From Methanothermococcus sp. Ax23 (lineage in GTDB: Archaea; AGJL01; Methanococci; Methanococcales; Methanococcaceae), in the NCBI RefSeq assembly GCF_049075655.1, contig NZ_CP157522.1:1056001-1120000 (forward strand): DNA of 64,000 nucleotides, in the 5' to 3' direction. Shown here one piece after another: positions 2,263 to 44,436 of this stretch. Each line of letters starts with the position of its first letter. Position 1 is the stretch's first letter. The notes below the pieces were generated by a model. The model ran no database searches, was not told where the DNA came from, and saw only the letters and a program-made list of their open reading frames with translations. The position numbers were made by a program, and so were the translations under genes.

Positions 2263-4481
2263 ATGGTAAAAAAAGAAATTACTAATAAAGATTTTTATAA
2301 AGAATTCATAGAATGTTTGGAAAAAGGGGAAGATTTCGAACTACAAAAATATATATCAGATGATAAATTAATTGTTGAAGAAAATATCAATATTTTAAAA
2401 ATTTATGAAGAGATTAGAAATAAAGAATTAAAAGGAGCAACTATTGAAGAAAATGACCAAGAAATAATAATGACTATAAATATAAATATATATATATTTA
2501 TAAAATTGAATTTAAAAATAATTTTACATTTGGAACTTTTGGCATTAAAACTTCGAAAAACACCAAAAATGTTAAAGTAAAAGACCGCAAACCTCTTAAA
2601 ATAATATTTAATGGAGATGTCTGTTTTTGGAGCTCCACATTTAATGGAGAAGTTGATTTCAAAAATGCCATATTTAATGGAGAAGTTGAATTTATAAACA
2701 CAATCTTTAACGGAACGGCAAATTTTAGCGATGCAGAATTTAATAAAATTAAATTTTGGAATGGCTTCCTTTCTGGTGTTTATGATTATCCACTTTGGGA
2801 GTATAGGGCATATACCACCACATTTAATCAGGATGTTGCATTTAATGAAACTAAATTTAAAAAGGCAGATTTTAGCAATACAATATTTGGGAAAAATGTT
2901 TATTTTATTGGTGCAACTTTTGAAGGAGAAGTTGATTTTAAGAATGTTACTTTTAATGAGCAGGTGAAATTTAAATTTACTTTTAAAGATACAATATCAT
3001 TTGGAGAAACAAATTTTAATAATGGCGTTATTTTTGAGAATATTAAATTTACAATTAATGGTGAGGGAAATAAGGAGGATAGGGAAGATAACATCATATT
3101 TATTAAAACAAAGTTTAAAAACGCTGATTTTAGAGGGAATAAATTTAAAAGTTTATCTTTTGAATTTTGTGAGAGTGAGGGGTATTTTCAATTTATGGGA
3201 AATAATGTTGAGAAAAAATTTTGTATAAATGGTTGCTCTTTTGATGGTAATGTTATATTTACTGGAAATTTTGAAGGAGATGTTGAAATTTTTAATTGTA
3301 ATTTTAAAGAAAAAAGTTCTGTTAAATTTGAAAATGTTGAATCCAATGGAGAAAAATCAGAATTTAAAAACATAACATTTGAAGGGATAACAGAATTTTC
3401 AGAAGTTGAGTCTAAAAATATCAAATTCGAAAAATTAATATTTAAATCTGCTACAAAATTTATGAATATTTCATTTAGTCAAATATTCTTTTTAGAATCT
3501 GTTTTTGAAGACCTTGCATTTTTTAAAAAGAAAGAAGAAAACAAAGATGAAGGAATAGCAATTTTCAATTTAGTTAATTTTAAAGAACCAGAGAATACAA
3601 CATTTATAGACTTTCCATTATCAAAAACATCTTTTTTATTAACTGATGTAAAAGAAATAACAATAATTGCAAAAGCAGAGAAAATTTTAAGTGAATATCT
3701 TTTAGATTATTTAGATAAAAAGAATAACGAAGAAATAAAGGAGGACAATAAAGATGAACTTTATGAAAAAGCGTTGGAAATACTTAAACCATATTTAAGA
3801 CAGGAAACAGTTTTAAAAGAATACAGAGACATGAGAAAATCTTTTGAAAATAATAGGACTTATGTTGAAGCGTCAGAATTGTTTATTTACGAAATGGATT
3901 TAATAAGAAGAATAGCAACATTTGATGAAAGAAAATTTATTGAAAAAATTAAACCAGCGTTGGAATATGGTTTATGGGGTATTTACTTTTACTTGCCATA
4001 CTTAGTCTTATTTGAATTTTGGATATGTTTAAAAACTGAAAGTTATCTGATTTTTTTAATTACAATTATAATAGTATTATATGCCATGTGGAAAGGTAGA
4101 GTGATAACATCGCTTACATTTTGGATTTATAAACTCACATCAAACTATGGGGAATCAATAACAAAACCAATATTTATTTCATTTTTTATAATATTGGTGT
4201 TTCCATATATTATTGATTTTTTAAATTGGATATGGTTTTTTGTTTCTAACTTTCCCTTGTTAAACGAACTTTTAAATAAAAATGGTTCAGCATACGAGCA
4301 AATATTAAGAGCATTTTTCCAATTAGGAATTGATAAAGATGTTATAAATTCAACAACTAATCCAATACAAAAAGAACAATTAAAAACATTAGCAAGTTAT
4401 GAATGGCTAATAAGAATCATCTCTTTAATTTTAATCGGTAATATCCTAATAGCAATTAAAAGAAGATTAGAACGAAAATAA
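2263..4481 (+). pseudogene. Pentapeptide-repeat membrane protein, frameshifted at an (AT)6 tract (2486-2497)
   Basis: The frame of ORF 2964-4481 is open upstream to ~2490 (IIFNGDVCFWSSTFNGEVDFKNAIFNGEVEF); F every 5 residues; C-terminal TM helices with SNYGES; removing one AT unit joins it to ORF 2263. Confidence 0.8.
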
Positions 4482-5324: not shown

Positions 5325-8030
5325 ATGGAAATAAACCATGATTATAATGTTGAGTTGTTTGAAAAAAAAGGATTCATGAGAAAAAAATGTAAAGAATGCG
5401 GACAGTATTTTTGGACATTAGACCCTGAGAGAGAAACCTGCGGAGACAGCCCATGCGATAAATACTCATTTATCGGAGCTCCGATTACAGATAAAAAATA
5501 CACATACACCGAGATGGTGAAGGAATTTTTAAACTTCTTTGAGGAAAATGAGCACACACCAATAAAAAGGTATCCAGTAACTGCGAGAAGATGGAGAAAC
5601 GATATTCTTTTAACAATTGCATCTATTGCAGTATTTCAGCCGTGGGTAACAAAGGGAGTTGTAGAACCAATTGCAAATCCTCTTGTAATAGCTCAGCCAT
5701 GTATTAGATTAAACGATATAGACAATGTTGGAAGAACGGGAAGGCATTTAACATGCTTTACAATGGGAGGACACCACGCATTCAATAAAGTAGATGATTT
5801 TAAATATTGGACAGATAGAACTGTCGAATTATGCTTCAACTTCATGAAAAAGCTCGGCATAGATGAAAAATCCATTACATTCATAGAAAGCTGGTGGGAA
5901 GGTGGAGGAAACGCTGGACCTTGCTATGAGGTAATAACTCATGGTGTAGAGCTCGCCACACTTGTGTTTATGCAGTATGAAAAAGTCGGAGATGAATATA
6001 GAGAAATGCCTTTAAAAATCATAGATACTGGCTACGGTATAGAGAGGTTTGTTTGGGCATCACAGGGAACACCAACTGTTTATGATGCAATATTTGGAAA
6101 TATCGTTGAAAAATTGAAGGAAAATGTAGGCATTGACTATATTGAAAATATTGATGATAGAATACTTGCAGAAAGTGCCACACTTGCTGGGCTTATGGAT
6201 ATTGAAAATGTTGGAGATTTAAGAGTTTTAAGGCAGAAGGTTGCTGAAAAGCTGAAAATGGATGTGGAAGAGCTGGATAAACTACTTACGCCACTAGAAA
6301 ATATATATGCCATAGCAGACCATACAAGATGCCTTGCATTTATGTTTGGGGACGGTATCGTTCCATCAAATGTAAAGGACGGATATTTGGCACGATTACT
6401 TGTAAGAAAAACATTGAGATACATGAAAAATGTTGGAATTACAATGTCTTTAAAGGACATTATAAATTTACAGCTTGAAGAGTTAAAGGAATTATATCCA
6501 GAATTACTTGAAATGAAAGATTATATAATGGATGTAATTGACGAGGAAGAGAGAAAATACATTCAAACAATTAACAAAGGAAGGGGAATTGTCGAAAGGC
6601 TGGCTAAGTCCAAAGATGAAATATCACTTGATGATTTGATAGAGCTCTACGATAGTAAAGGGCTTCCACCAGAGGTTGTTGAGGAAATTGTAAAGGAAAT
6701 AAATGAGAAAAATAAAACCAAAAAAACCATAAAACTAAATATTCCTGATAATTTCTATACAATAGTTGCCGAAAGACACGAGCAGAAGAAGATGGAAGAA
6801 AGTGAAGAAACAGAAGAAAATCAGAAAAAAGCACTTCCAGAAGTGAATGACATTCCAAAAACCGAGTTATTATTCTATAAAAATCCAAAACAGAAAGAAT
6901 TTGAAGCTAAAATCTTAAAAATAGTTGATGATTATGTAATTCTTGACAAAACCATATTCTATCCAGAAGGTGGTGGTCAAAAATACGATATTGGAGTTAT
7001 CAACGGCAAACAAGTTGTTGAGGTTCAGAAGAAAGACGATATCGTATATCACAAGCTCTCAGATGTAGAAGGTCTTAATGAAGGGGATATTGTAAAAGGA
7101 ACAATAAATTGGGAACAGAGAATCAATTTAATGAGAAACCACACAGCTACACACATAATAAATGCCGCAGCTCAGAAGGTTTTAGGAAAACATGTTTGGC
7201 AGACAGGTTCAAATGTTGAACCAGATAAGGCAAGGTTGGATATTACGCACTACAAGAGAATAACCAGGAATGAAATAAAGGAAATAGAAAAAATTGCAAA
7301 TGAGATTGTTTTAGAAAACATTCCTGTAAAGAGTTCCTTCATGGATAGGAACGAGGCAGAGCAGAAATATGGATTTAGAATATATCAAGGTGGAGTTGTT
7401 CCAGGGAATGTGCTAAGGATAATAAATATAGAAGGTGTAGATGTTGAGGCGTGTGGTGGAACGCACTGTGAAAATACTTCGGAAGTTGGATATATAAAGA
7501 TATTAAGAACTGAAAGAATCCAAGATGGTGTTGAAAGGCTCGAATACACAAGCGGAATAAACTCAGTTAAAGAAGTAAGTGCAATGGAGGATATTTTACT
7601 AAACTCTTCGGAGATATTGGGAGTTCCAGCTGAAAATCTTCCAAAAACTGTTAAAAGATTCTTTGAAGAATGGAAGGAGCAGAAGAAAACAATTGAAGAG
7701 CTCCAAAAGAAAATGGGAGAATACAAAAAGTATGAGCTCGCAAATAAATTTGAAAAAGTTGGAAGCTACGATGTTTTAGTTGAAATGGTTGAAGGAAATC
7801 CAAAGGAATTAATGTCAATTGCAGATAATTTGGTAAAAGAAGGTTCAATTGTGGTTCTATTAAATAACAACGGATATATTTTGTGTAAAAGAGGAGATGG
7901 TGTTGAGCTCAGCATGGGAGAGCTACTGAGGAAAATAGCAAAAGGTGGAGGAAAGGACAACTTAGCACAGGGTAAGTGTTTAGATGATATTAAAACTCTC
8001 AGAAATAAAGTATTTGAAGAATTGAAATAA
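5325..8030 (+). CDS. alaS: Alanine--tRNA ligase
   Basis: Archaeal AlaRS motifs [18 protein letters not shown] editing motif, EACGGTH. Confidence 0.98.
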
Positions 8031-8103: not shown

Positions 8104-8973
8104 ATGTTTATACCAGGTCATATTACCGGTTTTTTTAAGATATATAAGGATAAAAATATATTAAAAACAGGCTCAACCGGAGCAGGTATTACGCTAAATA
8201 AAGGAGTATATACTGATGTAATTGACGGAAAATCAGATGAATTCCTTCGGAATTCATTACTCGAAATCAGAGATTTCGATGGAGAAATATATTTTAATGG
8301 CGATAAGATAGAATTATGCTCAACAATTGAAGTGGTTAAAAACTATCTGAATTACAACGAATCGGATGAATTTAATTACAATATCATCCATAAATCAGAT
8401 TTTCCATTGGGCTGTGGATTGGGCACATCAGGTTCCTGTGCATTGGGTGCATCATATGAGCTCAGCAAAATTTACAACATAAACAAAGTTTTGGAATTTG
8501 CACATACTGCTGAGGTAAAATGCGGAACTGGACTTGGAGACGTGGTGGCACAATATACAAGAGGTTTTGTAATAAGGAAAAAACCCGGGCTCCCCATAGA
8601 TGTGAAAAAAATAAATATAGATGATATTAATAACTATTATGTAGTTGTTGAAATACTTGGAAAAAAAGAAACTGGCACGATTATCAACAATCCTGAATGG
8701 ATAGATAAAATAAATAAAATGTCTGATGAGCTCCTACAAAAACTATTAAAAAGTCCTACATTGGAAAACTTCATGAGTTTGTCCTATAAATTTGCAAAAG
8801 ATACAGGTCTTGCAAGTGATGAAATAATCGAACTATGCGATGATTTGAGTTTTACCATTGGGAGCTCACAGGCGATGCTTGGAAATACCGTATTTTGTAT
8901 ATGTGAAGATAAAGATTTAAATGATGTATTGTCTATATTAAATAAACCTATTGTATGTAAAATTTATCAATGA
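8104..8973 (+). CDS. Pantoate kinase (GHMP family) with an in-frame ~16-aa hairpin-derived insert
   Basis: [40 protein letters not shown]. Confidence 0.88.
8232..8280 (+). repeat. Double-hairpin micro-element inside pantoate kinase
   Basis: ATCAG-ATGAATTCC-TTC-GGAATTCAT-TAC-TCGAAATC-AGA-GATTTCGA-T: perfect 9-bp and 8-bp stems. Confidence 0.85.
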
Positions 8974-11033
8974 GGGAAATCATGAGTGAAAAATACTTAT
9001 TAACAACAGCTTTGGCATATACAAATGGACCACTTCATTTAGGACATGCGAGAAGCACATATATTCCTGCTGACATTATGAAAAAATACCTGAAATTAAA
9101 AGGTAAGGATGTAATCCATGTTGGTGGAACAGACAACCACGGAGTTCCTATCACACTTACAGCAGAAAAAGAGGGCGTAAAACCTGAGGATATTGTAAAT
9201 AAATATCACAATGAGATAAAGAGAGATTTAGACAATTTAAATGTAGAGTTTGACAGCTACGGAAAAACTCACAGCGATATCCATATAGAAACTGCTCAGG
9301 AGTTTTACAAAAAACTTAAAGAAAATGGATACATTTATGAAAAAGACATAGAGCAGTTTTACTGCCCGAAATGTGATAGATTTTTGGCAGATAGGTATGT
9401 TGAAGGAACATGTCCGTTCTGTGGCGGTGAGGCAAGAGGAGACCACTGCGAAGTTTGTGGAAGACATCTTGAACCAACCGAGCTCATAAATCCATACTGT
9501 ATAAACTGCAACACTACGCCTGAGCTCAGAAAAACAACACATAGGTTCTTTAAATTAAGTGCATTATCCGACGATTTAAGAAATTATGTTGAGAGCTCAG
9601 ACATGCCTGAGCATGTTAAGAATATGGCATACAGCTGGATAAAGGAGCTCCATGACTGGGATATTTCAAGGGATATAAAATGGGGTGTTCCAATACCTGA
9701 CAGCGAAAACCAAGTAATGTATGTATGGTTGGAAGCACCAATTGGTTATATTTCATTTACAAAGCAGTTGGGAGATGTTTGGAAGGATTATTGGTTAAAG
9801 AAAGATAAAAACGAAAATGATAGCGATGTAAAAATATGGCATTTTATTGGAAAGGACATTACAGTTCATCACTCAGTATTTTGGCCAGGCATGTTAATTG
9901 CTAATGGTGAATATAACCTTCCTTCGTCAGTGATAAGCGGCGGTTATTTAACACTTGAAGGAAGAAAGATGAGCACAAGTAAAAAATGGGTTGTTTGGGT
10001 AGATGATTTTGTTAAATACTTTGATTCCGATTATTTGAGATATTTCTTAATGGTAAATGCACCGTTAAATAGGGACTGTGATTTTTCATTTGATGAATTC
10101 CAAAAGAGAATAAACACAGAGTTAATTGCTATCATTGGAAACTTCACACATAGAGCTCTTGTATTTTCACACAGGAAATTTAAGGCTATTCCTGTTGTTG
10201 ATGAAGATAGCTTAAAAGAAGAAGATAAAGAACTGATAAACAAATGTAAAGAAACTGTTGAAAAAGTAGATAAACACATAATGGAATTTAACTTTAAGGA
10301 TGCTATAATGGATATTATTCACCTTGCAAAAGAGGGGAATAATTACTTCCAGAAGATGGAGCCTTGGACTGTTGAGGATGAAAACAGGTTGAAAGAAATA
10401 TTATACACCTGTGCAGTGGTTGTAAAATATATAGTTTATTTGCTTTATCCATTTATGCCAAATAAAACCATGAAACTTCTTGATTTAATGAATGAAGAAC
10501 TTGATTTGGAAATTAGGGGAAATACTTTGAAAAAGCCGAAGGTTGTATTTACAAAAATTGAAGATGACCAAATCAAGATGGTTAAAGGAAAACTATTAAA
10601 ATCAGAAGAAGCTAAGGAAAAGAAGAAAAATAAAAACAAAAAAGATAAAAAAGAAAAAAACAATAAAGACGAAAATAAAAACAACAAAGAAAATGAAAAA
10701 GGTGATTCTATGGATTTAATAAGCATTGATGACTTTGCTAAAATTGAGTTGAGAGTTGCACAGATTTTAGAAGCTGAGGAGGTTCCTAAATCCAAAAAAT
10801 TGTTGAAATTAATTGTAGATATTGGGGATGAAAAGAGACAGGTCGTTGCAGGTATAAAGGGACACTATGAACCATCGGAGCTCGTAGGTAAAAAAATTGT
10901 ATTATTATGCAACTTAAAACCTGCTAAATTATGCGGTGTAGAATCACAAGGTATGGTTTTAGCCGCAGGGGATGAGGTTGTAGCTCTTTTAACACCAGAT
11001 AAGGATGTTCCAGTAGGAAGCAAAATCTGCTAA
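8970..11033 (+). CDS. metG: Methionine--tRNA ligase (start possibly 8982)
   Basis: HLGH and KMSTS motifs, Zn knuckles, C-terminal tRNA-binding OB domain. Confidence 0.98.
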
Positions 11034-15262: not shown

Positions 15263-15873
15263 TATTTTTCCCTCCGTTTCCTATTTTGTGGATATATTGT
15301 GATTAAATTAATAGACAATGGTTCTACTGATTTTATCTAATGTCGGCGGGAAGACCCTTCCGTAAGGGATTGAATAAAAATCCTGAAGGGATTTTTATAG
15401 CCCTCCACTTCGCTACGGGGGATGAGAGCCGACAAAAAATATAAATATTATGACGTAATAAAATAAACATATAAATGGGCGAAAACCAAGCTCATTCTAC
15501 ACTATTTTCATGCACCTGCGGAAGGCGGGGGTGAGCCTGTGGAGAAGTGAGCCCCTACCTAGGTAGTTAATAACTACTGGTGATGGCAAGCTCGTTCAGT
15601 GAAGCAGGAAGCCCCTTCCGTAAGGAAGGGGCACTTCACACTAATAACTACTACAATATCATGCTCCTCGCTGTTCTCATAATATACTTTAAATTTTCCA
15701 TCCTTTTGTTTTAGTATTCCCACGGGTTTATTTTCAGTTATGATTTTAAGTATTTCTTCTTCATCAGGTAAATCCTCTTCCCTAAGTTCCAATCTTGTTT
15801 CATAGTGTTTAGTTTTATTAAAATTCTTCTTTTTAGAAGTAAATAGATAAGATAATACCTCATCAATATCCAT
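15262..15873 (-). pseudogene. Small nuclease/toxin-like gene (DUF4258-like) interrupted by a MITE
   Basis: Removing 15337-15639 restores ...HDIVVVISIKSVEPLSINLITIYPQNRKRREK*, whose TAA overlaps the ATG of the DUF2283-like gene. Confidence 0.75.
15337..15639 (+). mobile_element. Non-autonomous IS200/IS605-family (tnpB-derived) MITE, 303 bp
   Basis: Inserted 3' of TTTAT with no target duplication; left end GTCGGC...GCCGAC; right end GAAGCAGGAAGCCCCTTCCGTAAGGAAGGGGCACTTCAC; remnant of a TnpB C-terminus (PAEGGGEPVE). Confidence 0.88.
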
Positions 15874-18444: not shown

Positions 18445-18480
18445 TCTGACCTACTCCCACGACTAAAGTCGTGGGGTTCT

Positions 18481-19742
18481 TTAGCAGGGTCTAACCCTAC
18501 ATGGGTTGCCAAGCCCACTACCCCTATCTCCGTTTAGGAGATTCAGGGCTACCTTATGCGATACTTTTTTTAAAATATTCAAAGCCCCGTTAATGTCTGC
18601 ATTCAAAACCATGCCACACTCACTACACACATACAAACCCCTATACTTCCTATTACTCTTTTTAACTACACCACAATTACTGCAAGTTTGAGAAGTATAA
18701 GCTTCATTAACCTGTTCTACTGTTAATCCCTTTTCCTCTGCCTTATATGTTATCATACTTACTAACCTACCAAAAGGTATTCTATGCAATTGCTGATTAA
18801 CCCTATCTCCAATGTCAATACTTGAAATGCCTTTGTTTAACTCGCCGATTACAATCCTTGAAACTTTGTTATCCACTGCAAAATCGATAATCATTTTACT
18901 TATTTTATGTAGATAATCCTTAGTATAATTCTTTTCCCTTACTGTTAAGCGGGATAATCGTTTATTATATTTTAACTCTTGCTTTGTTAGGGTAGATTGG
19001 ATTTTTCCTTTACTTTTAGCAAACCATCGGAATTTAGAAATTAACCTTCTTCCATCGTAGATTACTGCACTGCCCGTATTGGTTACTACTGTTGCTAAAT
19101 TCTTAATTCCTAAATCAATACTTAGTATATTACCTTCTTTGATAGGTTCTTGAATTACTGGTTTCTTATGGATTAAGTGAAGTATGTAGTAGGTTATCCC
19201 ATAGATGGTCTGCGGAACTATCTCAACTTCTTTAACCTGCATGGTATCAAGCGGTAGAGTTTTCGATAAATCTACCCATAAGTACTTGGACTTGATACCA
19301 TGCTTCTCTTTGAGATAGTTTTTAGTTTGTTTAGATAATGATAACCTTAACTTATTGCCTATGATTTTGAAACCTTGCTTCTTCCATTTTACGGGAAAGT
19401 GTCCATCTTTTGGTTGGTATCGTGGTCTTTTAGTGTGCTGTTTGAAGTAGTTTTGCCATGCAATCGCTTGCGTAGCAAGCGAGCAACGAAAACCGAAGGT
19501 TTTCGTCTAATTTGAAGTTTTTGACATACTGCCTGTGCTGACTGTGAGTGCAGGTTTTTAAACCAGAAGTTGTTCTTCATTTGAACATCTATTTTATTTG
19601 GTTTAATATTTCGCTGTATTACTTCGTAGTTGGATGTATTCCAGAGTTTTGATGCTGAATAGGTTAAATGGTTTATGATTGTTAATTGTTCATTATTTAA
19701 ACTTCTGGTTAGGTTTATTGTCAGCACTCTGGTTACTTGCAT
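18481..19742 (-). pseudogene. tnpB: RNA-guided endonuclease TnpB, frameshifted by a 47-nt hairpin insertion
   Basis: RuvC IDLG, GEL and NADINGALNI motifs; Zn finger CSNCG/CSECG; deleting 19462-19508 gives a continuous frame KLQIAWQNYFKQ. Confidence 0.92.
19462..19508 (-). repeat. 47-nt double-hairpin micro-element inside tnpB
   Basis: AG-ACGAAAACC-TTC-GGTTTTCGT-TGC-TCGCTTGC-TAC-GCAAGCGA-TT. Confidence 0.9.
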
Positions 19743-20192
19743 GGAATTCACCAAATTTATATATGCCATTATTCTAATTACACTCATATTATGTAGTGAA
19801 GTATATAAAAAAATGATGTCCGCCTATCATCCAATCTCATAAGAGATTTTACAAAACCTTGTTTTGTATAACGATTAAAATCGTTGGCTTTCTCGGCGGT
19901 TTATCGTAAAAAATTAATTTCTTTGAAATTTTATGTCACCATACGCTTCGCACACTATAATTTAGAATATCTCTAATATTCATTTTTCCGAATAAGACTC
20001 AGCTTATATATTCCATCCTATGAATTGAGAATATTTTTTTATTAATGTTAATAAATTTGACGAAAATAATAACGTATATATAATACTATTTATTTATTCC
20101 GTAATATATGATATTATTTAATATTACACTGTTGCAACATGTGCATGTCTTTTCATTATATACTTGATGTTATTTATAAAACTGGTGGTTGT

Positions 20193-24316: not shown

Positions 24317-24889
24317 ATGCCCAATGCATATGCCCATTTGGTTTTTGGAAAATTATTTTTGGAAAATCATAAAATCACAGATTTTAATATCGCAAATAAT
24401 AAAAAAATAATAAATAGTATTGATTTGGACAACTTTTATTTTGGCTGTGTGATTCCAGATATAAACCATATTTCTAAATTAGAGAGAAGGATTACTCATT
24501 TTTATGACAATAATGTTTTTGAATTCTTCGAACCAAAAAATAGTGTAGAATATTCCTTTTGTTTGGGGTATGATATACACATAAAAATTGATAACTTATG
24601 GAAATACAACATACGATTAAAATACAACATACCTCTTGAAGAAAATTTGAAAATATACAACTATCTTGATTATTTTTTGAAAAAAGAATATGGGGTTGAT
24701 TATAACTATTTTAAAGACCATATTTTTAGGGGCAATTGTGATTTGCTGAAAGAATTAAATATAAACAAAAAATTATGCGAAGAATGGAAAAAAAGATGTA
24801 TAAATGATAAAATTGAACTTGAAAACAAAAATAATAAAAATAATGCCTATGAAAAACTGATAAAAGAGTTTTTAAATATTCTGGGTTAA
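24317..24889 (+). CDS. Zinc-dependent phospholipase C/P1-like hydrolase
   Basis: N-terminal MP...H, FYFG...PD, THF, GYxxHxxxD. Confidence 0.6.
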   Translation: MPNAYAHLVFGKLFLENHKITDFNIANNKKIINSIDLDNFYFGCVIPDINHISKLERRITHFYDNNVFEFFEPKNSVEYSFCLGYDIHIKIDNLWKYNIRLKYNIPLEENLKIYNYLDYFLKKEYGVDYNYFKDHIFRGNCDLLKELNINKKLCEEWKKRCINDKIELENKNNKNNAYEKLIKEFLNILG

Positions 24890-25861
24890 TTTTAAAATAC
24901 TATCTTTTTTAATATTAAATGAAACCTCATCCCCTTCTTTTAACATCATTTTTGTATTATGAATTTCAGAAATTAATATATTATCCCTATATTTTATGGC
25001 ATATCTCACAAGGTTGCCAAGATATTCAATATCTACTATTTTTCCAGTAAAATCTCCCTTTCCCACAGTTATATTCTCGGGTCTCACAAAATATTTATAT
25101 TCCTTATCATAGGGCATATTTAAATAAGTTAGAATATTTTTTGGAACCTCATTTATATTTCCTATAAAGTTTGCGATGAATTCTGTTTTTGGGCAGGCAT
25201 ATATATTTTCGGGCATATCCAACTGTTCAATTTTGCCGTTATTCATAACCCCTATTCTATCGGATATTGCCAATGCCTCCTCCTGGTCATGCGTAACATA
25301 TATGGAAGGTATATTTAAGTCCCTTTGAAGTTTTTTTAACTCTTTCCTCATCTTTATTCTCAATTTTGCATCTAAATTGCTAAGGGGTTCGTCAAGTAGT
25401 AATACTTCTGGTTCGATTACCAATGCCCGAGCTACTGCCACCCTTTGCTGCATCCCACCGCTTAACTCATTTATATTGTAATTCTCAAATCCTTCTAAAT
25501 TAACCATATTCAATGCATCTTTAACCTTTTCTTTTATCTCATTCTTTTTTAATTTTTTTATTTTTAAACCATAGGCTACGTTTTCATAAACGTTTAGATG
25601 GGGAAAAAGTGCGTAGTTTTGAAACACCATGCCTATATTTCTCTTATTTGGTGGAATGTTAGTAATATCCTTCCCATTTAAAAAAATCTTCCCATTATCG
25701 GGCATTTCAAAACCTGCTATTGTCCTTAGGCAGGTGGTCTTCCCACACCCACTTGGTCCCAGTAATGAGATGAGCTCATTTTCACATTCAAAATTTATGT
25801 TGTCCAAAATTTTTATGTTGGAATATGACTTTGATACATTGGCGAGTTTTAGAATTGCCAT
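24872..25861 (-). CDS. ABC transporter ATP-binding protein (PotA/FbpC-like)
   Basis: GPSGCGKT, LSGGMQQR, LLDEP. Confidence 0.95.
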   Translation of the reverse strand: MAILKLANVSKSYSNIKILDNINFECENELISLLGPSGCGKTTCLRTIAGFEMPDNGKIFLNGKDITNIPPNKRNIGMVFQNYALFPHLNVYENVAYGLKIKKLKKNEIKEKVKDALNMVNLEGFENYNINELSGGMQQRVAVARALVIEPEVLLLDEPLSNLDAKLRIKMRKELKKLQRDLNIPSIYVTHDQEEALAISDRIGVMNNGKIEQLDMPENIYACPKTEFIANFIGNINEVPKNILTYLNMPYDKEYKYFVRPENITVGKGDFTGKIVDIEYLGNLVRYAIKYRDNILISEIHNTKMMLKEGDEVSFNIKKDSILKLTQNI

Positions 25862-25920
25862 TTTATCACCTTATTAAAATTAGATTTGATTTATGAGGTG
25901 TATTTTTATGGAGCATGGCA

Positions 25921-27549
25921 TTAATCAGCAATAAAATTTTTACCTTTTAGCTTCCAGATTAATAGCACACCAACAACTGACAAAATTATCATCATTAGGG
26001 AATAACAGGCTGCAACTCCAAATTCATCGTTAATTGTAGCTTCAAACACCATGGCAGACAAAACCTTTGTGTTTGCAGTTATAAGGAATATAATTGAACC
26101 CAAAGTTTTTACCGTGGCAATAAATGTATATATCATGCTGAAAATTATTGCAGGCTTTAACATAGGCAAAACAATCTTATAAAATGTTTTTAATTTGTCT
26201 GCACCTAAATTAAGAGATGCTTCTTCTATGGATTTTTCTATTTGAGAAAGTGTGGTATATCCAGTTTTATATGAAAACGGAAGTTTTCTAACAACACAAT
26301 TTAAAATAATAATTAAAGATGTCCCAGTCAATAACAGGGGTTGAGTATTGAAAGCCAGTAGATAGCCAATACCCATAAATGTTCCCGGAATGGCAAAAGG
26401 AAGTAATATTATTAAATCCAGCATTTTTCGCCCAAAAAATCTATCTCTTACAATCATATATGCAAAAACCATGCCCATCAATCCAACCAATATACTTGAT
26501 GATAGTGCAAATATTACGGTATTTTTTAATGCAGGCATGCCCTTCTGTAATGCTTCTATAAGATAATTCAACGTGAATGTGTAGTTGTATCCAAAACTCT
26601 TTGTAAATGCGGCTAGAAATACCGCTGAAAATAACATACAAACTACAACGGCAAAAACCATAGGTGGTAGAGATAGTAATAGTTTGTATCTCCCCTTTAT
26701 TGAATAAGGTTTTATTTTCATGGTTTTTTGACCATGCTCTTTGTAAAGTCTGTTGTATAATGCAAACAATATTAAAGAAGGTATTAACAAGATTACGCTC
26801 AATGTTGAAGCCATGGCCGTATTAAAGTTGCCTATTATTTCAAAATAAGAAGCTGTTGCAAGGGTGTTGAAATTTCCACCAACTATAATGGGAGTTCCAA
26901 AATCTGCCATAGAGCTCATAAATATTAAAAGCCCAGCACTTAATATTCCCGGGAGAAGTAGGGGAAATGTGATATTTTTGAAAACCTTAAATTCGTTGGA
27001 ACCTAAATTTCTAGCGGCGTCTTCTAAATTGGAAGATATGCCCAGCAAAACAGCGGATATTATTAAAAATGCCGTGGTGGTATAATCAATTGATTGAAGA
27101 ATAACTACACTTTTCCAGCCGTATATGTTTGGTTCCAATCCCAAAAGCCCGTAGGTTATTAATCCATGCCTTCCAAATAGAAATACATAAGCCAGTGAAT
27201 CTATAAATCCGGGGGTAATTATTGGGAGCAATACGGCAATTTTTAAAAAAATCTTTCCTTTAATATCTGTTTTAAAAATAAGCAATGAAAACAATAATCC
27301 CATAAATAATGATAATGTAGTCGATAAACATGCTACCATTAAACTGTTTTTTAAAATACTGTAATAGTATGGGTTTTTAATAAATTCTATGTAGTTTCTT
27401 AATGTAAATCCGTCATCATAAAATGACTGTATAAGAACGGAGGATATGGGAAATGCCACAAATATTAATAAAAAAATAAATCCTATCAGATGGGACAAAT
27501 ATTTTGTAAATTTTATACTTGCCATCTTTTCGAATCTTTTGTAATCCAT
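25921..27549 (-). CDS. ABC transporter permease (FbpB/ThiP-like, two TM modules)
   Basis: Two EAA loops (LEDAARNLG, IEEASLNLGA); DFGTP. Confidence 0.92.
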   Translation of the reverse strand: MDYKRFEKMASIKFTKYLSHLIGFIFLLIFVAFPISSVLIQSFYDDGFTLRNYIEFIKNPYYYSILKNSLMVACLSTTLSLFMGLLFSLLIFKTDIKGKIFLKIAVLLPIITPGFIDSLAYVFLFGRHGLITYGLLGLEPNIYGWKSVVILQSIDYTTTAFLIISAVLLGISSNLEDAARNLGSNEFKVFKNITFPLLLPGILSAGLLIFMSSMADFGTPIIVGGNFNTLATASYFEIIGNFNTAMASTLSVILLIPSLILFALYNRLYKEHGQKTMKIKPYSIKGRYKLLLSLPPMVFAVVVCMLFSAVFLAAFTKSFGYNYTFTLNYLIEALQKGMPALKNTVIFALSSSILVGLMGMVFAYMIVRDRFFGRKMLDLIILLPFAIPGTFMGIGYLLAFNTQPLLLTGTSLIIILNCVVRKLPFSYKTGYTTLSQIEKSIEEASLNLGADKLKTFYKIVLPMLKPAIIFSMIYTFIATVKTLGSIIFLITANTKVLSAMVFEATINDEFGVAACYSLMMIILSVVGVLLIWKLKGKNFIAD

Positions 27550-27867
27550 ACAAACACCAAAAAAGTATTAGTATATTAATATAGAGAGAGTGGTAGATAT
27601 GATAATTATGAATTAAGGTGTTATTTTGTTATTATTGATTGATATCTATTTTTCCACTCATTTAAAACTTCATCCCTATGCTCTCCCCAATATACAAAGT
27701 CCATGTCTATGAAATCTAATTCACTAGGATTTGGAACTCCTTCAAGGGTTTTTATATCACTTCTTACGGGAACTCTTGGACTTGCATTCATTAAAACTTC
27801 TTGCCCTCTTTTTGACAATACCCAATCCACAAATTTCTTTGCATTGTTTGGATGTTTGCAGTCTTTA

Positions 27868-29022
27868 CTGACAGTGTGAATTAACAATACCATCTTTAAA
27901 ATCAAAAAATAGAAATAGGTAGTAGTTAAATATCTCATTAAAAAACGGTGAATTCAGCATGCTAAAGACATTAAGTAATATGCTCACTAATTCTATAAAT
28001 AGTTTAGGATTTAACTGTTCGGAAGAATTATCTAAGTTTGCATTGGTTAGAACGTTAACGCCGATAAAAACTATTAAAGCATTTTCAGAAAGTATTTCAA
28101 AAATCCACAGAACAACTATCGTTAAAAACTTGCAAAAACTCTTCGAAGAAGAGTTTTACTTATACGCTCAATTATTAAACCTTCCCGACATTTTGAATGA
28201 CAATAGATTTAAATACGCTGCAATAATCGATTCAACATTATTAAGAAGATGGAGTGAAAACATTTATGGTTGTAGTATTAGATACAATTACATCGAAAAT
28301 CATAGCAAACTATATCAAGAGCAAATAAACTGCTGTATCTATCACAAAAAAAAGGGCTTTATACTATTCACACTACGATAAAACCACTCGACAAAAAATC
28401 CACAAACATATTTATTGAAATCATTGAATTTTTATCTCAAACTAACATCAGGACGGTTATAGGGGACAGTTTTATCACAACAAAGAAAATTCTAAAGGTA
28501 TGTAAGGAATTGGGAATCGAATACATTGGCAAACTTAGGAAAAACATTATAATCGAGTTTTTCAGTAAGAAGGTTAAAGTGGAAGAATTGTTCGAAAAGG
28601 ATTTTCAAAAAAGAAAGTTCAAATTAAGGACGATTAATGGAATAGAGTTCAAATTATCCGATAGGATTGTGAATATTCCAAATGTTGGCAAGGTTAAAAT
28701 CGTTGCTGTGCAAATGGAAAATCAGAAAAAACCTAAGTATTTAGTCTCTACAAACTATAAAAAGAAGGCGGAGAACATTATAATCGAGTATATGAAGAGA
28801 CCAAAGATAGAAGAAAAACATAAAAGGGATAAATCGATTTTAGAAGTTGAAGGGAATTACATAACTTCTGAAAAGAGTAATATTGGATTCATTAGATTTA
28901 TGGCGGTAGTATCAAACTGCATCGAATACTTAAGCTACAACTATGGATTATCGTTTTATGAAATCGTTAAAAAGTGTGGTAAAGAACTAATAAAGAAAGG
29001 AATATCATAATCACACTGTCAG
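27868..29022 (+). mobile_element. DDE insertion sequence (IS701/IS4/ISH3-like), 1155 bp
   Basis: TIR CTGACAGTGTGA at both ends; 7-bp TSD GTCTTTA at 27861-27867 and 29023-29029. Confidence 0.93.
27959..29010 (+). CDS. Transposase, probable -1 programmed frameshift at A AAA AAG (28346-28354)
   Basis: IIDST in ORF1; IGDS and RPKIEE in the -1 frame, which is open from the slippery site. Confidence 0.8.
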
Positions 29023-30011
29023 GTCTTTAACTATTGCAACTGGTGAAGGCCACCAAACCACTTTATCAAGATATACTGATTTTATTGGTGCATTAGGATT
29101 TTTCATTTGAGCAATATGTGGGTCAGGAGATACTCCAAAAGTATATTCTCCTGAAATAACAACATTACCGGGTCCAGAACCTCTTTTTGTTAAAAAGGGG
29201 GTATTTTCATAAAATTTATCAAGGTATTTCCAACCTTCATCTTTTCCTTTCATTTGGAGTATTCCGCATATTGTGAAATATGCTGTTCCAGATATTGTTG
29301 GATTTGATGCTATGAGTTCCCCCTTATATTCTGGTTTTATCAAATCATCCCATGTTTTTGGTTCTGGAAGATTTTTATCTTTGAGTAATTTGGTGTTTTC
29401 CAAAACTCCAATTGTAACAAGGGATACGCCAGTCCAGTAATGCTCTTTATCTACAAATTTACTATCTATATACTTTGCATTTGGAGATTTATAAGGCATC
29501 AATAAACCTTCATTTTTAGCCTTTATGAAGGCATCAATACCCCCACCGAACCATACATCACATGAAGGATTGTTTTTTTCTGCCATAAGTCGAGATAACG
29601 CTTCTCCTGATGACATCGAAACATAATTTACTTTTATGCCAGTATCTTTTTCAAATTCTTTTGCAATTGTATCCAATCCACCGTAGGCAGCATAGATATT
29701 GATAACCTTTTCTTCTGTTGGATTACTTTTTGATGGTGTGGATGTAGAGCTCTGGTCATTAATACATCCGCAGACACTCAAAGACAAAATTATCCCAAGT
29801 ATGGCAAGAATAGGCACGTATTTTTTCACAATTTCACCTTATTTACTGATGTATGGTGTGTTCTTAATTGAGATTAATATTTATAATTTATTATTTAGAT
29901 TTTTTAATGGCATGAGGTTTATGTGAGCTCATATCAAAAATAATATATACTAAAATGGGAATAATTATATTGTAAATAATAAAAGAATTAAAATAAAAAA
30001 GAGGGGAAACT

Positions 30012-30442: not shown

Positions 30443-30799
30443 ATGAGTTGTATTGATGCAAAAACCATGGTAGAAGGAACTGATTTTGAGAAAAAACATA
30501 CTCCAATGATTGAGTGTAATGATGTAGTTAAAGCAGGGGAAATTTTTGAAGTTAAAATTCACACCGCGGGGGTTGAACATCCAATGGAGGATGGACACTT
30601 TATCCAATTTATAGGACTTAGGATAGGGGATATTCCTTTGGCAAGAGCTGATTTAACGCAGTATGCTAAACCAGAGGTGGCATTTCATATAAAAGCTCCA
30701 TCTGAAGGTCATGAAGGCACTGTCATGAAATTAACTGCATTTATGTACTGTAATTTGCATGGAATTTGGAAGTATGAAAAAGAGGTAAAAATAGAATAA
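30443..30799 (+). CDS. sor: Superoxide reductase (neelaredoxin type)
   Basis: EKKHTP, HPMEDGHFIQFI, YCNLHGIW. Confidence 0.93.
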   Translation: MSCIDAKTMVEGTDFEKKHTPMIECNDVVKAGEIFEVKIHTAGVEHPMEDGHFIQFIGLRIGDIPLARADLTQYAKPEVAFHIKAPSEGHEGTVMKLTAFMYCNLHGIWKYEKEVKIE

Positions 30800-30899
30800 C
30801 ACCAATATGGGATATTTCAAGAAGGACATAAGAGAATCTCCATAAATAATGAAAATAAAAAAATAAAAAAATAATATTAAAAATAAAAATAAAAATAAA

Positions 30900-31050
30900 A
30901 AATCGATGATACTATCCGCTAAAAATCTCTTTGAGATTTTTAGACTAGTATCATCTAAAAAAAGAGAAATCGGTGATACTATCAGATGAATTTCACAGAA
31001 TGAAATTCATTACTAGTATCATCTAAAAAAAGAGAAATCGGTGATACTAT
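30900..31050 (+). repeat. Mini-array: 39-bp direct repeats separated by distinct 28-29 nt hairpins
   Basis: ACTAGTATCATCTAAAAAAAGAGAAATCGGTGATACTAT at 30944-30982 and 31012-31050; partial copy at 30900-30915. Confidence 0.9.
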
Positions 31051-31204
31051 GGCAAAATATCAATGTATGTGTGGATGGATATATGATGAAAATGTTGGAG
31101 AGCCTTCTCAAAATATAGCACCAAATACCAAGTTTGAAGATTTGCCAGATACATTTAAATGCCCTCAGTGTGGTTTGGGAAAAAACGCATTCAAAAAAAT
31201 TTAA
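31049..31204 (+). CDS. Rubredoxin (51 aa; not in the ORF track)
   Basis: MAKYQCMCGWIYDE...FEDLPDTFKCPQCG; GGTGA RBS. Confidence 0.93.
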   Translation: MAKYQCMCGWIYDENVGEPSQNIAPNTKFEDLPDTFKCPQCGLGKNAFKKI

Positions 31205-32233: not shown

Positions 32234-32258
32234 ACTTAAATGGGGGTTAAATTTAATT

Positions 32259-32400
32259 ATTAGACGAAAACTTCGGTTTTCGTTGCTATATGCTTATTCG
32301 GAGCTCTGATTGAACTCCTTTGGATTTTGTAGCATCGAACCGAGGGTTCGAAATTAAAATTGTGAAGCAATTTTATATTCTACGCTCCTTCGGAGCTCCG
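32259..32400. repeat. Intergenic cluster of short hairpin modules
   Basis: ATTAGACGAAAACTTCGGTTTTCGTTGC (1-nt indel versus the tnpB insert), TCGAACC-GAG-GGTTCGA, TAAAATTG...CAATTTTA, GCTCC-TTC-GGAGC. Confidence 0.8.
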
Positions 32401-32458
32401 ATAACATAAATTAACACCTTAATAAATATATTAATCAACAAATGGGAGAGGGTAAAAT

Positions 32459-41851: not shown

Positions 41852-43075
41852 ATGGATACAATCACGCTTATTCCAAAAAATAATATTGACATGCCAATTG
41901 AGGCTGATGTAATTTCCCCCGATGTTTTTGCAAATAAAACCCTTGATGAAATAAAATCATTGCTTGTTTGGCAGGGGAACACAAGAGTTCCTTTATCAGA
42001 ATTTTTTGAAATTAAAGGAGAGAATGTTCCTTCAAAAGAGCCCACCATTGTAATAGACGGAGATGTTAGCAAGGTAAAATATATCGGCTCAAAAATGAGC
42101 TCCGGTAAGATAGTAATAAATGGCAATGTTGGCATACAGTTGGGATATGAAATGAAAGGTGGAGAGATTATAGTAAATGGAGAGGCTGGCAGATTCGTAG
42201 GAAGTGAAATGAAAGGCGGTAAAATCCACATAAAAGGAAACGCAGGAGATTATATAGGCTGTGCATACCGAGGAGATTGGAGAGGAATGAGAGGAGGCAC
42301 AATAATCATTGAAGGAAATGCTGGAAACAACATTGGTGGAGGGGCTCTTAAAGGAGAAATAATTATAAAAGGAAATGTCGGTCAGTTCTGTGGTATCAAC
42401 CTGAGGGGTGGAAAAATCGTCATTGGTGGCGGTGCTGAAAGAAATGTTGGTGCTGAAATGATTAAAGGAGAGATTATAATTTGTGGAACTATTGATAAAT
42501 TCCACCCTGGTTTTGAATTAGTTGAAGAAGTGGATGGAAAGGAGCTCGGTTTGGATGGAACATTCCTTAAATTCACAGGGGATAACTCCATGAAAAAACC
42601 AAAAGGAGTTTTATATGCTTCAAAAGAACATAACAAGCATCTTATAGGATTAGAGTCCAGAACTGAAAATTATATAATCGGAAAAAACAAAATTGAGGCA
42701 GTATTTAACTCAGGAAGCACTATTGTGCAGGGTGCAATTATCAAAGGGGGAGACAAATTCACAAAAGAATATATTGAAGTGTGTGCAGTTTGCCACATCC
42801 ACCCTGATGATTACAACATATTGGGACAACCCCAAAAAGTTAGGATTTCAAGAAAAGGATATGGCGTGGTTGTGAGAGCTCTCCCTGATGATGACCTTCA
42901 AAGAGGTAATGTCTTTATACCAAGAAGTATTTGGGCAAATGTTGTGGCAGACCCATATACCGAGGGTTCTGGCTCTCCAAACTATAAGGGATGTAAAGTA
43001 ATTGTTGAACCTGCTTCTGATGATGAAAAAATACTGAGTGCAGAAGAGATATTGGAATCCTATGGGGTGAAATAA
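41852..43075 (+). CDS. fmdC: Formylmethanofuran dehydrogenase subunit C with fused D-like domain
   Basis: GXGXG beta-helix repeats followed by a molybdopterin-binding D-type domain (FIPRSIWAN...GSPNYKG). Confidence 0.9.
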   Translation: MDTITLIPKNNIDMPIEADVISPDVFANKTLDEIKSLLVWQGNTRVPLSEFFEIKGENVPSKEPTIVIDGDVSKVKYIGSKMSSGKIVINGNVGIQLGYEMKGGEIIVNGEAGRFVGSEMKGGKIHIKGNAGDYIGCAYRGDWRGMRGGTIIIEGNAGNNIGGGALKGEIIIKGNVGQFCGINLRGGKIVIGGGAERNVGAEMIKGEIIICGTIDKFHPGFELVEEVDGKELGLDGTFLKFTGDNSMKKPKGVLYASKEHNKHLIGLESRTENYIIGKNKIEAVFNSGSTIVQGAIIKGGDKFTKEYIEVCAVCHIHPDDYNILGQPQKVRISRKGYGVVVRALPDDDLQRGNVFIPRSIWANVVADPYTEGSGSPNYKGCKVIVEPASDDEKILSAEEILESYGVK

Positions 43076-44436
43076 TGAAAGAAGTTTATAGAAGTCTTAT
43101 ATGTCCCGTCTGTGGCGGTGCATGTGATGATATTGAAGTAGAATTTGACTCTGAAAAGGAAGAAATAGTTGTTAAAAATGCCTGTAAAATGGGTGCGGCA
43201 AAATTTAAAGAGGTTTATAGTCATCACAGAATCAGAACTCCTCAGATAAAAAAAGATGGGAAATTTGAAAATGCAAGCTGGGATGAAGCTTTGGATAAAG
43301 CGGCTGAAATACTGGCAAATGCAAAAAGACCACTGTTTTTCATAGGAAGTGAAACATCGACAGAGGCGATGAGAGTTGGATTACACATGGCTGAGTATTT
43401 AAGGGGAGTGGCTGATTCAAACGCAACTATATGACACGGACCTACACTTATGGGAATTCAGGAATCCGGAATTTCTGGTTCCACAGCAGGAGAAGTAACA
43501 AATAGAGCAGACCTAGTGGTGTATTGGGGAACCAATCCAATGGACTCAATGCCTAGGCATCTGTCAAGATATGCGGTATATCCAAGAGGGTTTTTTAGAG
43601 AAAGGGGGAAACGAGATAGGTTTGTAGTTACAGTAGACCCGAGAAGAACAGCCACGGCAAAGGCATCTGACCTGTATATTCCTATAAAACCTAACTCCGA
43701 TTATGAAGCATTTGCGGCAATATTAACAATATTAAAAGGAAAGGAGCCACATCCTTCTGTGGAAGAAATCACAGGAATACCTATTGAAACCCTTAAAGAT
43801 TTGGCACATAAAATGACCACATGTCAGTTCGGAGCTCTCTACGGTGGATTGGGATTGCCTGCATCAAGAGGAAGGAACAGGAATATTGAAATGATTATGA
43901 AGGTAGTGGCTGAGATTAATAAATATACAAAATTCACCATAGGAGCAATTAGAGGACACTGTAATGTGGCAGGGTTCAACCAAATTGCATCCTGGATGTA
44001 TGGATTCCCATTTGGTGTGGATTTCCTGAGAGGATACCCAAGATTCAACCCAGGGGAAACTACAACAGTTGATTTATTACTCAACAAAGAAGTGGATGCC
44101 GTATTTGTAATGTGTGCTGATTTAGGAGCTCACCTGCCAAAAGAGTGTGTTGAGTATTTGAAAAATGACATTCCTGTGATTTGTGTAGATATAGCACCAT
44201 GTCCTACAACATCATTGGCTGATGTGGTGTTGCCGGGCGTAATTGATGCTATGGAGTGCGATGGAACATTTTACAGATTTGACAATATCCCTATCAACTA
44301 CAAGCCATTTACAAAATCTCCATTCCCATTCACAAAAAGCAACGAAGACACATTAAAACAGTTGTTTGAAAAAATAAAAGAAAAAGTAAATAACAATCCT
44401 GAAAGAACAGCGGATGATGTGAGAATAGAAGTTTAA
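43075..44436 (+). CDS. fmdB: Formylmethanofuran dehydrogenase subunit B, selenoprotein (UGA at 43432-43434)
   Basis: ORFs 43075 and 43450 share a frame; NATI-UGA-HGP places the UGA at the Mo/W-ligand Cys/Sec position; CPVCGGACDD, RGHCNVAG. Confidence 0.92.

Follow-up and report, generated by a model that had tools for sequence, protein, structure and literature searches.

How does a rubredoxin gene come to begin at the very end of a short series of repeats separated by hairpins? The question is raised by positions 30900 to 31050 of a 64,000-nt stretch of the genome of Methanothermococcus sp. Ax23, a heat-loving methanogen (NCBI RefSeq assembly GCF_049075655.1, contig NZ_CP157522.1, positions 1,056,001 to 1,120,000 of the forward strand). 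The whole stretch, with a G+C content of 31.6%, is referred to here as the window. A preliminary description, made from the window alone, had interpreted the series as a CRISPR-like mini-array that grew by hairpin insertion upstream of the rubredoxin gene (rub). The gene on the other side of the series encodes a superoxide reductase (sor). In our analysis, the array resolves into two compound stem-loops, in which copies of the Shine-Dalgarno (SD)/start region of rub alternate with their exact complements, and whose predicted folds indicate that the leader may modulate rubredoxin translation. The fuller reading, to which we give about an even chance, is that of a young, lineage-specific stack of two stem-loop units, which originated by hairpin insertion and duplication and acts as an SD-decoy/anti-SD leader for rubredoxin.

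The comparison set comprised the window and 10 fetched loci, for a total of about 209 kb, and the sor-rub spacer was compared in nine archaeal loci (L001 to L009). The closest locus found, L001, comes from an assembly of a Methanothermococcus sp., with a SOR protein that shares 90% identity with that of the window and with collinear DNA at 86-89% identity.

Anatomy of the sor-rub leader

A 39-nt string at 30944-30982 recurs as an exact second copy at 31012-31050, and together with a partial copy farther upstream the repeats are spaced by 67 and 68 nt, leaving intervening stretches of 28 and 29 nt. This arrangement had been recognized correctly in the preliminary description, except that the partial copy is limited to 16 nt: the alignment over 30877-30915 reaches 64% overall, and the real likeness is confined to its last 16 nt (30900-30915, 15 of 16 matching). 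No further copy of the 39-mer occurs in the window with up to 3 mismatches, nor in the whole comparison set with up to 10 ungapped mismatches. The second 39-mer ends in the SD, GGTGAT, and in the AT of the rubredoxin ATG, as had been proposed, and the 51-aa open reading frame (ORF) that starts there matches Pfam Rubredoxin. The repeat ends are complementary across each spacer, over 10 bp in both cases (30905-30914 with 30946-30955, and 30972-30981 with 31014-31023), where 0 such cases are expected from 100 shuffles.

A parsing in the order L1, hairpin 1, R1, linker, L2, hairpin 2, R2, linker, and L3-ATG is more informative than one in repeats and spacers. In particular, L corresponds to the 10-11-nt SD/start region (GATGATACTA at 30905 and GGTGATACTA at 30972 and 31040), and R corresponds to the exact reverse complement of L (TAGTATCATC at 30946 and 31014). 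The elements of the leader and the two genes that enclose it are the following:

30443..30799, + strand: sor, the upstream gene, of the superoxide reductase/desulfoferrodoxin type (Pfam Desulfoferrodox, E 3.6e-29)
30900..30915, + strand: L1, slightly mutated first SD/start copy, 5' arm of outer stem 1 (GATGATACTA at 30905-30914)
30919..30943, + strand: inner hairpin 1, perfect 11-bp stem (30919-30929/30933-30943), loop of 3
30946..30955, + strand: R1, anti-SD, 3' arm of outer stem 1, reverse complement of L
30956..30971, + strand: linker 1, A rich, 16 nt
30972..30982, + strand: L2, 5' arm of outer stem 2, decoy identical to the SD/start region (GGTGATACTAT)
30986..31010, + strand: inner hairpin 2, perfect 10-bp stem (30986-30995/31001-31010), loop of 5
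31014..31023, + strand: R2, second anti-SD arm, with L2 (decoy) or L3 (real SD) as partner
31024..31039, + strand: linker 2, A rich, 16 nt, same sequence as linker 1
31040..31051, + strand: L3, functional SD (GGTGAT) and ATG start of rubredoxin
31049..31204, + strand: rubredoxin gene, 51 aa (Pfam Rubredoxin, E 7.5e-22)

Every L pairs over 10 bp with the next R and encloses an inner hairpin, which gives rise to two compound stem-loops of about 50 nt each, and every R is equally able to pair with the following L over the 16-nt linker. Since R pairs with the L copies, L3 included, R has the features of an anti-SD, L1 and L2 those of decoys, and L3 those of the working SD. The earlier suggestions that the spacers are perfect hairpins, that the repeat ends extend their stems, and that these ends could pair over the ribosome-binding site are thus upheld, the last one by the complementarity and by a predicted SD-sequestered fold.

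A 5-codon mini-ORF (30986-31003) opens hairpin 2, with its ATG 9 nt past the GGTGA core of the decoy SD L2; it stops at a TGA within the hairpin and is missing in L001.

Predicted folds and alternative pairings

The array region folds at -47.5 kcal/mol (z = -7.1), a value equaled by none of 200 shuffles, with predicted energies of -23.9 and -22.4 kcal/mol for the two compound stem-loops. The open state, in which L1 pairs with R1 and L2 with R2 so that the SD is free, is predicted at -44.9 kcal/mol at 37 C and -18.3 kcal/mol at 65 C, and the best closed state, in which L1 pairs with R1 and R2 with L3, at -42.5 and -15.7 kcal/mol, respectively. The folding model therefore predicts open and SD-sequestered states that are nearly isoenergetic and mutually exclusive. 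In the computed ensemble of the full leader, the SD is unpaired with a probability of about 0.5; in an RNA that lacks L2, such as one that starts inside the array, the predicted value is 0.01-0.03, and the SD would be closed even at 65 C. The predictions for the leader of L001 are similar, with an unpaired probability of 0.28-0.50 for the full leader and of 0.00-0.01 for an RNA starting at 10404. Since the prediction keeps the closed helix folded even at 65 C, the leader does not appear to be a simple RNA thermometer.

The 10-bp complement of the rubredoxin SD/start region is located 16 nt upstream of that region. When the approximately 209 kb were scanned for an exact anti-SD no more than 150 nt upstream of an SD and start codon, only this leader, in the window and in L001, and one unrelated coding match were retrieved, with no other anti-SD/decoy leader elsewhere in the set. 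Rfam returned no family at gathering score in the window and, around the array, chance-level matches only at E values up to 5; the tRNA/tmRNA search retrieved none. Promoter-like sites were found in shuffle-level numbers only, in a scan that uses a bacterial model. Three further RNA types were rejected by eye, namely, a C/D-box sRNA (no D box), a K-turn (internal loop without tandem G-A pairs), and a bulge-helix-bulge intron (the two bulges lie opposite each other and not 4 bp apart).

Unit number and arm co-variation in related loci

The sor gene is directly followed by rub in all nine archaeal loci fetched, and eight of them (L002 to L009) have no unit in the spacer, while L001 has one and the window two. 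Variation in unit number, which the preliminary description had proposed to look for in sister strains, was found here among related loci, and the 0/1/2-unit series points to stepwise growth, in agreement with the array growth by unit addition that had been suggested. Among the loci without a unit, the three "M. okinawensis" assemblies (L002 to L004) have sor and rub merely 8-12 nt apart, the spacer of L005 is A rich, measures about 93 nt, and has a plain SD, and the four Methanocaldococcus-type loci (L006 to L009) have spacers of about 85-130 nt by manual count.

Exactly one unit is present in L001, in which L, an inner hairpin, and R are followed by an A-rich linker of 14 nt and by L-ATG. 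The stem core of hairpin 1 recurs there at the equivalent place (10400-10420), and because this inner stem core is common to L001 and the window, unit 1 can be regarded as orthologous. The window thus corresponds to L001 with one additional 68-nt unit, placed between otherwise collinear DNA:

30957..31026, + strand: window-specific segment in the pairwise alignment with L001, where it spans 70 columns (the unit actually added measures 68 nt, with an arbitrary register within the repeat)

Judging from its flanks, identical at 39 of 39 positions, unit 2 is the newest unit and very young.

Two positions distinguish the arms of L001 from those of the window. At position 8, L1, R, and the real SD/start copy have all changed in step; at position 2, L1 and R have done so, and the working SD retains G, which results in a G-U pair. 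In the alignment of three rows from the two genomes, all cells pair in both the L1:R and the R:L2 structures, with two pairs changed on both sides in the former and one in the latter. When a simple simulation placed 5 substitutions at random among the 30 arm positions, the two helices remained intact together in 2.9e-4 of the trials. The pattern suggests that both pairings have been maintained, either by selection or by templated copying.

A dispersed double-hairpin family as the probable source of hairpin 2

Spacer 2 and its flanks had been reported to match an insert in the pantoate kinase gene, and this match proved to be sound. Hairpin 2 and its flanks share 12 + 11 nt with the hairpin of the insert, the pattern common to 8234-8257 and 30983-31010 has 2 occurrences against 0.00 expected, and covariance-model matches link the two. 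The segment was indeed inserted, and recently: of 19 aligned homologues, 4 carry it and 15 lack it, one of the latter being 97% identical. A 91%-identical homologue carries it in a form one residue shorter, and this distribution suggests precise loss, recombination, or repeated gain.

The insert belongs to a dispersed double-hairpin (DH) element of 47-50 nt, formed by two adjacent short hairpins. Two covariance models were used for its recognition, one built from three DH copies (model R1) and one built from five seeds (model R2), both distinct from the leader arms of the same names. The copies of the window outside the sor-rub leader are as follows:

8230..8277 (model match 8232-8280), + strand: DH insertion, in frame in the pantoate kinase gene, 48 nt or 16 residues; seed of model R1
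19462..19511, - strand: DH copy that interrupts tnpB with a frameshift (Pfam/NCBIfam TnpB; IS200/IS605-like gene at 18481-19787)
32259..32298, + strand: solo DH hairpin 1 in a hairpin-rich window-specific insert (model R1, 30.4 bits, E 1e-5; model R2, 38.2 bits, this copy being a seed by then)

The DH insert is the sole lesion of tnpB, whose N-terminal part and 326-residue C-terminal part are each open, in different frames. Two further copies (2986-3034 and 6514-6563), one of them intergenic beside IS-like ORFs, are found in Methanocaldococcus sp. 28A (L009), so that the family spans at least two genera; a second L009 copy is recovered by model R1, with an E value of about 1e-5. Overall, the 209 kb contain four full copies (two in the window and two in L009), two solo first hairpins in the window, and a marginal match in L001. 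The DH stems co-vary, with 7 pairs changed on both sides. No terminal inverted repeats were seen in the DH alignment, and the insertion boundaries are ambiguous by 1-2 nt, empty sites having been compared as proteins. Differences in presence at orthologous sites concern the pantoate kinase insert (4 of 19), unit 2 (missing in L001), and tnpB (interrupted, with intact flanks), and the DH family is probably mobile. The plasmid collection gave no match to the array or to the DH element.

Hairpin 2 with its flanks (30981-31014) scores 21.8 bits with model R1 (E 0.003 in the search of the 209 kb, and 8.5e-4 in that of the window alone, run without filters) and 20.2 bits with model R2 (E 0.01). On the basis of these E values together with the exact flank match, hairpin 2 is likely a member of the DH family, related to DH hairpin 1.

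The window as a whole contains 10 perfect hairpins with a stem of at least 9 bp and at least 2 G-C pairs, where 30 dinucleotide shuffles gave 1.9 +/- 1.8, and several perfect hairpins have GAA/TTC or TTCG-type loops. The insert that holds the solo hairpin (32239-32437; 104 + 65 nt) lies between a small rubredoxin-like ORF and the peroxiredoxin gene and is missing in L001; it includes a second stem at about 32336-32352 that is like the second DH hairpin, and its folding z-scores are -1.8 and -2.9. The tnpB gene is flanked by hairpins at 19850-19868 and 18456-18475, which may be IS ends.

Origin of the second unit

An origin of unit 2 by hairpin insertion and local duplication is well supported by the sequence comparison. 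Unit 1 most likely arose in the common ancestor of the window genome and L001, and unit 2 came later as a 68-nt insertion composed of a DH-family hairpin and a duplicate of R-linker-L. Plain tandem duplication with gradual divergence, which the preliminary description had itself set against its proposal, was not seen and is excluded, as the flanks are identical at 39 of 39 positions and the spacers are alike at only about 15 of 31 aligned columns (manual count). Three routes fit unit 2: an insertion of hairpin 2 with a 39-nt duplication, an insertion of hairpin 2 plus a copy of R-linker-L between SD and ATG, and an unequal exchange between two alleles with different inner hairpins. As for the earlier proposal of iterative hairpin insertion with duplication of the target, growth by the addition of units is upheld, and target duplication fits unit 2, as does tandem duplication or unequal crossover with subsequent replacement of the hairpin.

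An L001-specific insert of 33 nt, at 8804-8836 of that locus, lies in frame in the orthologue of the window ORF 24317-24886. It consists of a 10-nt direct duplication of the flank and an inverted copy of part of it, that is, the same L / reverse complement of L / L logic as the rubredoxin unit; its score with model R2 is marginal (19.5 bits, E 0.016). This anatomy hints at a fold-back or template-switch step. In the part of PMC8794818 consulted, template switching is described as a route to perfect stems and to compensatory changes in one step. Similarly to such quasi-palindrome mutations, R repeats the adjacent L perfectly in inverted form, the stems contain no mismatch, the arms show compensatory changes, and the L001 insert unites inverted and direct copies of its flank. 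In contrast to them, the inner hairpins have no local template, hairpin 2 resembles a dispersed family, and the extra direct copy of 16-39 nt calls for a further step. A direct flank copy combined with an inverted-repeat arrangement involving the flank was observed in 2 of the 13 indels of at least 15 nt examined between the window and L001 (out of 20 of at least 8 nt) and is therefore not a pervasive pattern.

A more general process, so far undescribed and put forward here as improbable, would be target-templated insertion, in which a landing hairpin gains first an inverted and then a direct copy of its target (L - hairpin - reverse complement of L - filler - L). Repetition at one site would yield a repeat-spacer array independent of Cas, here co-opted as a decoy-SD/anti-SD switch tunable by the number of units, and the L001 insert, located at an unrelated site, would be a second footprint of the process.

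Proposed function and alternative explanations

Every unit of the leader combines an inner hairpin, which varies between units, with the anti-SD arm R, the A-rich linker, and a copy L of the SD/start region. In the proposed working of the leader, R would pair either with the preceding L, enclosing the inner hairpin, or with the following one. In an RNA carrying the whole leader, the last anti-SD arm, R2, would choose between the identical decoy L2 and the real SD, whereas in transcripts starting within the array the SD is predicted to be closed. As the SD would be closed in any RNA that lacks L2, translation could depend on which transcript is made, by read-through from sor or from an internal start; alternatively, it could depend on the kinetics of folding. 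The level of rubredoxin translation with respect to sor would then be fixed or adjusted by the array, which may be a switch, without known ligand, governed by the promoter or by folding kinetics.

Several points weigh against this proposal. The switching presupposes that L1 and L2 are inside the mRNA, which the position of the transcription start would decide, and no sensor was found and no partner identified, in that Rfam gives no match and the predicted closed helix, surviving 65 C, is not that of a simple thermometer. The element occurs in two genomes only, the co-variation is that of three rows, two of which come from one genome, and such a pattern could also result, with no selection involved, from templated repair or gene conversion. 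Furthermore, the absence of the element from eight of nine relatives implies that it is dispensable. With regard to origin, the covariance-model E values of hairpin 2 are marginal and roughly calibrated, and membership of hairpin 1 in the DH family is not supported (10.3 bits, E 1.2, and no match with model R2).

The most serious competitor, appreciably less probable than the decoy/anti-SD reading and still to be reckoned with, is a neutral by-product, by which selfish or mutational hairpin insertions (mobile palindromes, template-switch or fold-back errors, slippage) accumulated in a tolerant spacer, templated correction, and not selection, preserved the perfect pairing and the identity of the L copies, and expression is little affected. 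The lack of the element at eight of nine related loci, the very recent date of unit 2 with its 39 of 39 identical flank positions, the excess of perfect hairpins in the window (10 against 1.9 +/- 1.8), the insertion of the same hairpin family in a coding gene and in tnpB, the L001-specific 33-nt insert of like anatomy, and the template switching documented for perfect stems and one-step compensatory changes in the consulted part of PMC8794818 all speak for it. However, the three-way coordinated change takes in the functional SD/start copy, which is under constraints of its own, and an exact anti-SD 16 nt upstream of its SD is predicted to affect initiation if transcribed. A different role in RNA, as an element of stability or processing or as an attenuator in the sor-rub transcript, would uncouple the levels of the two genes without SD competition; the stem-loops would shield the rub segment downstream, cause transcription to pause or terminate, or mark a site of cleavage. 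It agrees with the high predicted stability of the stem-loops (-22 to -24 kcal/mol each, folded at 65 C), with their location between co-oriented genes that are only 8-12 nt apart in L002 to L004, and with a T5 run in the 3' arm of inner hairpin 1 in both genomes. Nevertheless, it gives no reason for outer arms that are copies of the SD/start region and change along with it, the scan, of limited value here since its model is bacterial, gave no terminator-like site on the + strand, and the long T runs are on the minus strand; we regard this role as quite improbable.

Two explanations look for the meaning of the repeats in DNA. A cruciform, or a binding site for a redox regulator of the oxygen-detoxification cluster, duplicated to provide operator copies, would suit the location in a cluster of O2-defence genes and the long inverted repeat formed by the outer arms, but arms 31-32 nt apart are atypical of a dimeric operator, the motif is found nowhere else in the window, including upstream of the other O2-defence genes, and the arm sequence is simply the SD/start region. 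This alternative is, in our opinion, very improbable. The other is the original idea of a CRISPR-like array, either degenerate or orphan or produced by Cas-independent spacer acquisition, which we consider effectively refuted. The likeness to CRISPR arrays lies in the geometry, with regular 39-nt direct repeats and dissimilar intervening sequences of similar length (28-29 nt). Different from them, only two full repeats and a 16-nt partial one are present, the repeat holds the SD and start codon of a gene and has no other copy in 209 kb, both spacers are perfect palindromes, and spacer 1 was inherited at the same site as in L001, while spacer 2 comes from a genomic hairpin family. The supposed repeat thus amounts to an anti-SD arm, an A-rich linker, and an SD/start copy. 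Moreover, none of the 70 ORFs of the window reaches the NCBIfam cutoff for a Cas family, and no cas genes are present in the 64 kb; the TnpB fragment has sub-threshold similarity to Cas12f2 (118 bits against a cutoff of 450).

Relationship to known regulators and mobile repeats

The closest known regulators are SD-sequestering leaders such as RNA thermometers and the expression platforms of bacterial translational riboswitches, where an anti-SD alternates with an anti-anti-SD. The sor-rub leader shares with riboswitch platforms an anti-SD just upstream of the SD, which pairs with it or with a competing upstream partner in mutually exclusive ways. Different from these platforms, the competitor is a decoy, a second copy identical to the SD/start region, in place of a separate anti-anti-SD; neither an aptamer nor a sensor was found, Rfam gives no match, and the element is archaeal, modular, and grown by unit addition. 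Different from both riboswitches and thermometers, the closed helix is predicted to survive 65 C.

To our knowledge, little is documented in archaea about 5' leaders whose structure controls translation. A precedent is L7Ae, which, according to the portion of PMC6298567 consulted, regulates translation of its own mRNA through the structure of the leader RNA; among the matches listed in the limited literature searched there was no other archaeal leader of this kind, and that literature gave nothing in print on the rubredoxin leader element. The natural series of 0, 1, and 2 units captures a putative regulatory RNA structure at successive stages of assembly and offers material for testing how an SD decoy and an anti-SD affect the yield of a gene for oxygen defence in a strictly anaerobic organism. 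The feature would join two known kinds of element, the insertion of a palindromic mini-element and the SD-sequestering leader, if the regulatory role that we infer holds.

With regard to the DH element, palindromic elements that insert in frame into genes are known from Rickettsia and from Methanocaldococcus jannaschii, for the latter through a passage of PMC2996958 that cites Suyama et al. (2005), a paper also found in the reference list of PMC2229807. The DH element enlarges this small set of palindromic elements known to insert in frame into housekeeping genes, being present or absent among near-identical homologues of pantoate kinase. As in REP/REPIN, MITE-like, and Rickettsia and M. jannaschii palindromic repeats, the copies are dispersed, here in two genera, differ in presence between genomes, and include intergenic ones besides the in-frame insertion of several codons into a housekeeping gene. 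Different from these repeats, the DH element is only 47-50 nt long with two short hairpins, and it shows no visible terminal inverted repeats, clear target duplication, or assigned transposase; the likeness to the M. jannaschii families noted here is one of behavior. For the complete rubredoxin unit, with arms derived from the SD region next to it, no dispersed copies occur in the window and the 10 loci.

Palindrome-associated elements derived from IS200/IS605 are also hairpin-based mini-elements, and here hairpin mini-elements occur in a genome with a TnpB-type IS. However, the presumed end hairpins of the IS (near 19850-19868 and 18456-18475) are unrelated to the DH element, no tnpA and no conserved target tetranucleotide were seen, and the DH element interrupts tnpB.

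Genomic context

Both sor and rub, between which the array sits, belong to an oxygen-defence cluster, with genes for a CMD-family protein, SOR, rubredoxin, a thioredoxin-like protein, ferritin, peroxiredoxin, rubrerythrin, and an FprA-like flavoprotein.

An intergenic stretch at 15335-15645 that is G+C rich and dense in hairpins includes a stem with a GTAA loop (15611-15632) and a hairpin (15374-15398) that resembles that of an L009 DH copy. Its folding z-scores are about -3, Rfam gave only chance-level matches for it at E values up to 1, and the stretch may correspond to an unannotated small RNA.

A segment of about 4.9 kb (24981-29928), missing in L001, encodes the ATPase and permease of an ABC transporter, whose best matches are to families of the aminoethylphosphonate, polyamine, and iron types. 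An IS whose transposase ORFs (27959-29007) are IS4/ISC1217-like divides the gene of the substrate-binding protein, on the minus strand, into two parts (27624-27938 and 29014-29829). Finally, formylmethanofuran dehydrogenase subunit B (43075-44433) is represented by two ORFs, 43075-43431 and 43450-44433, which cover profile positions 2-112 and 119-421; this looks like the pattern expected of an in-frame TGA selenocysteine codon and not like a broken gene.

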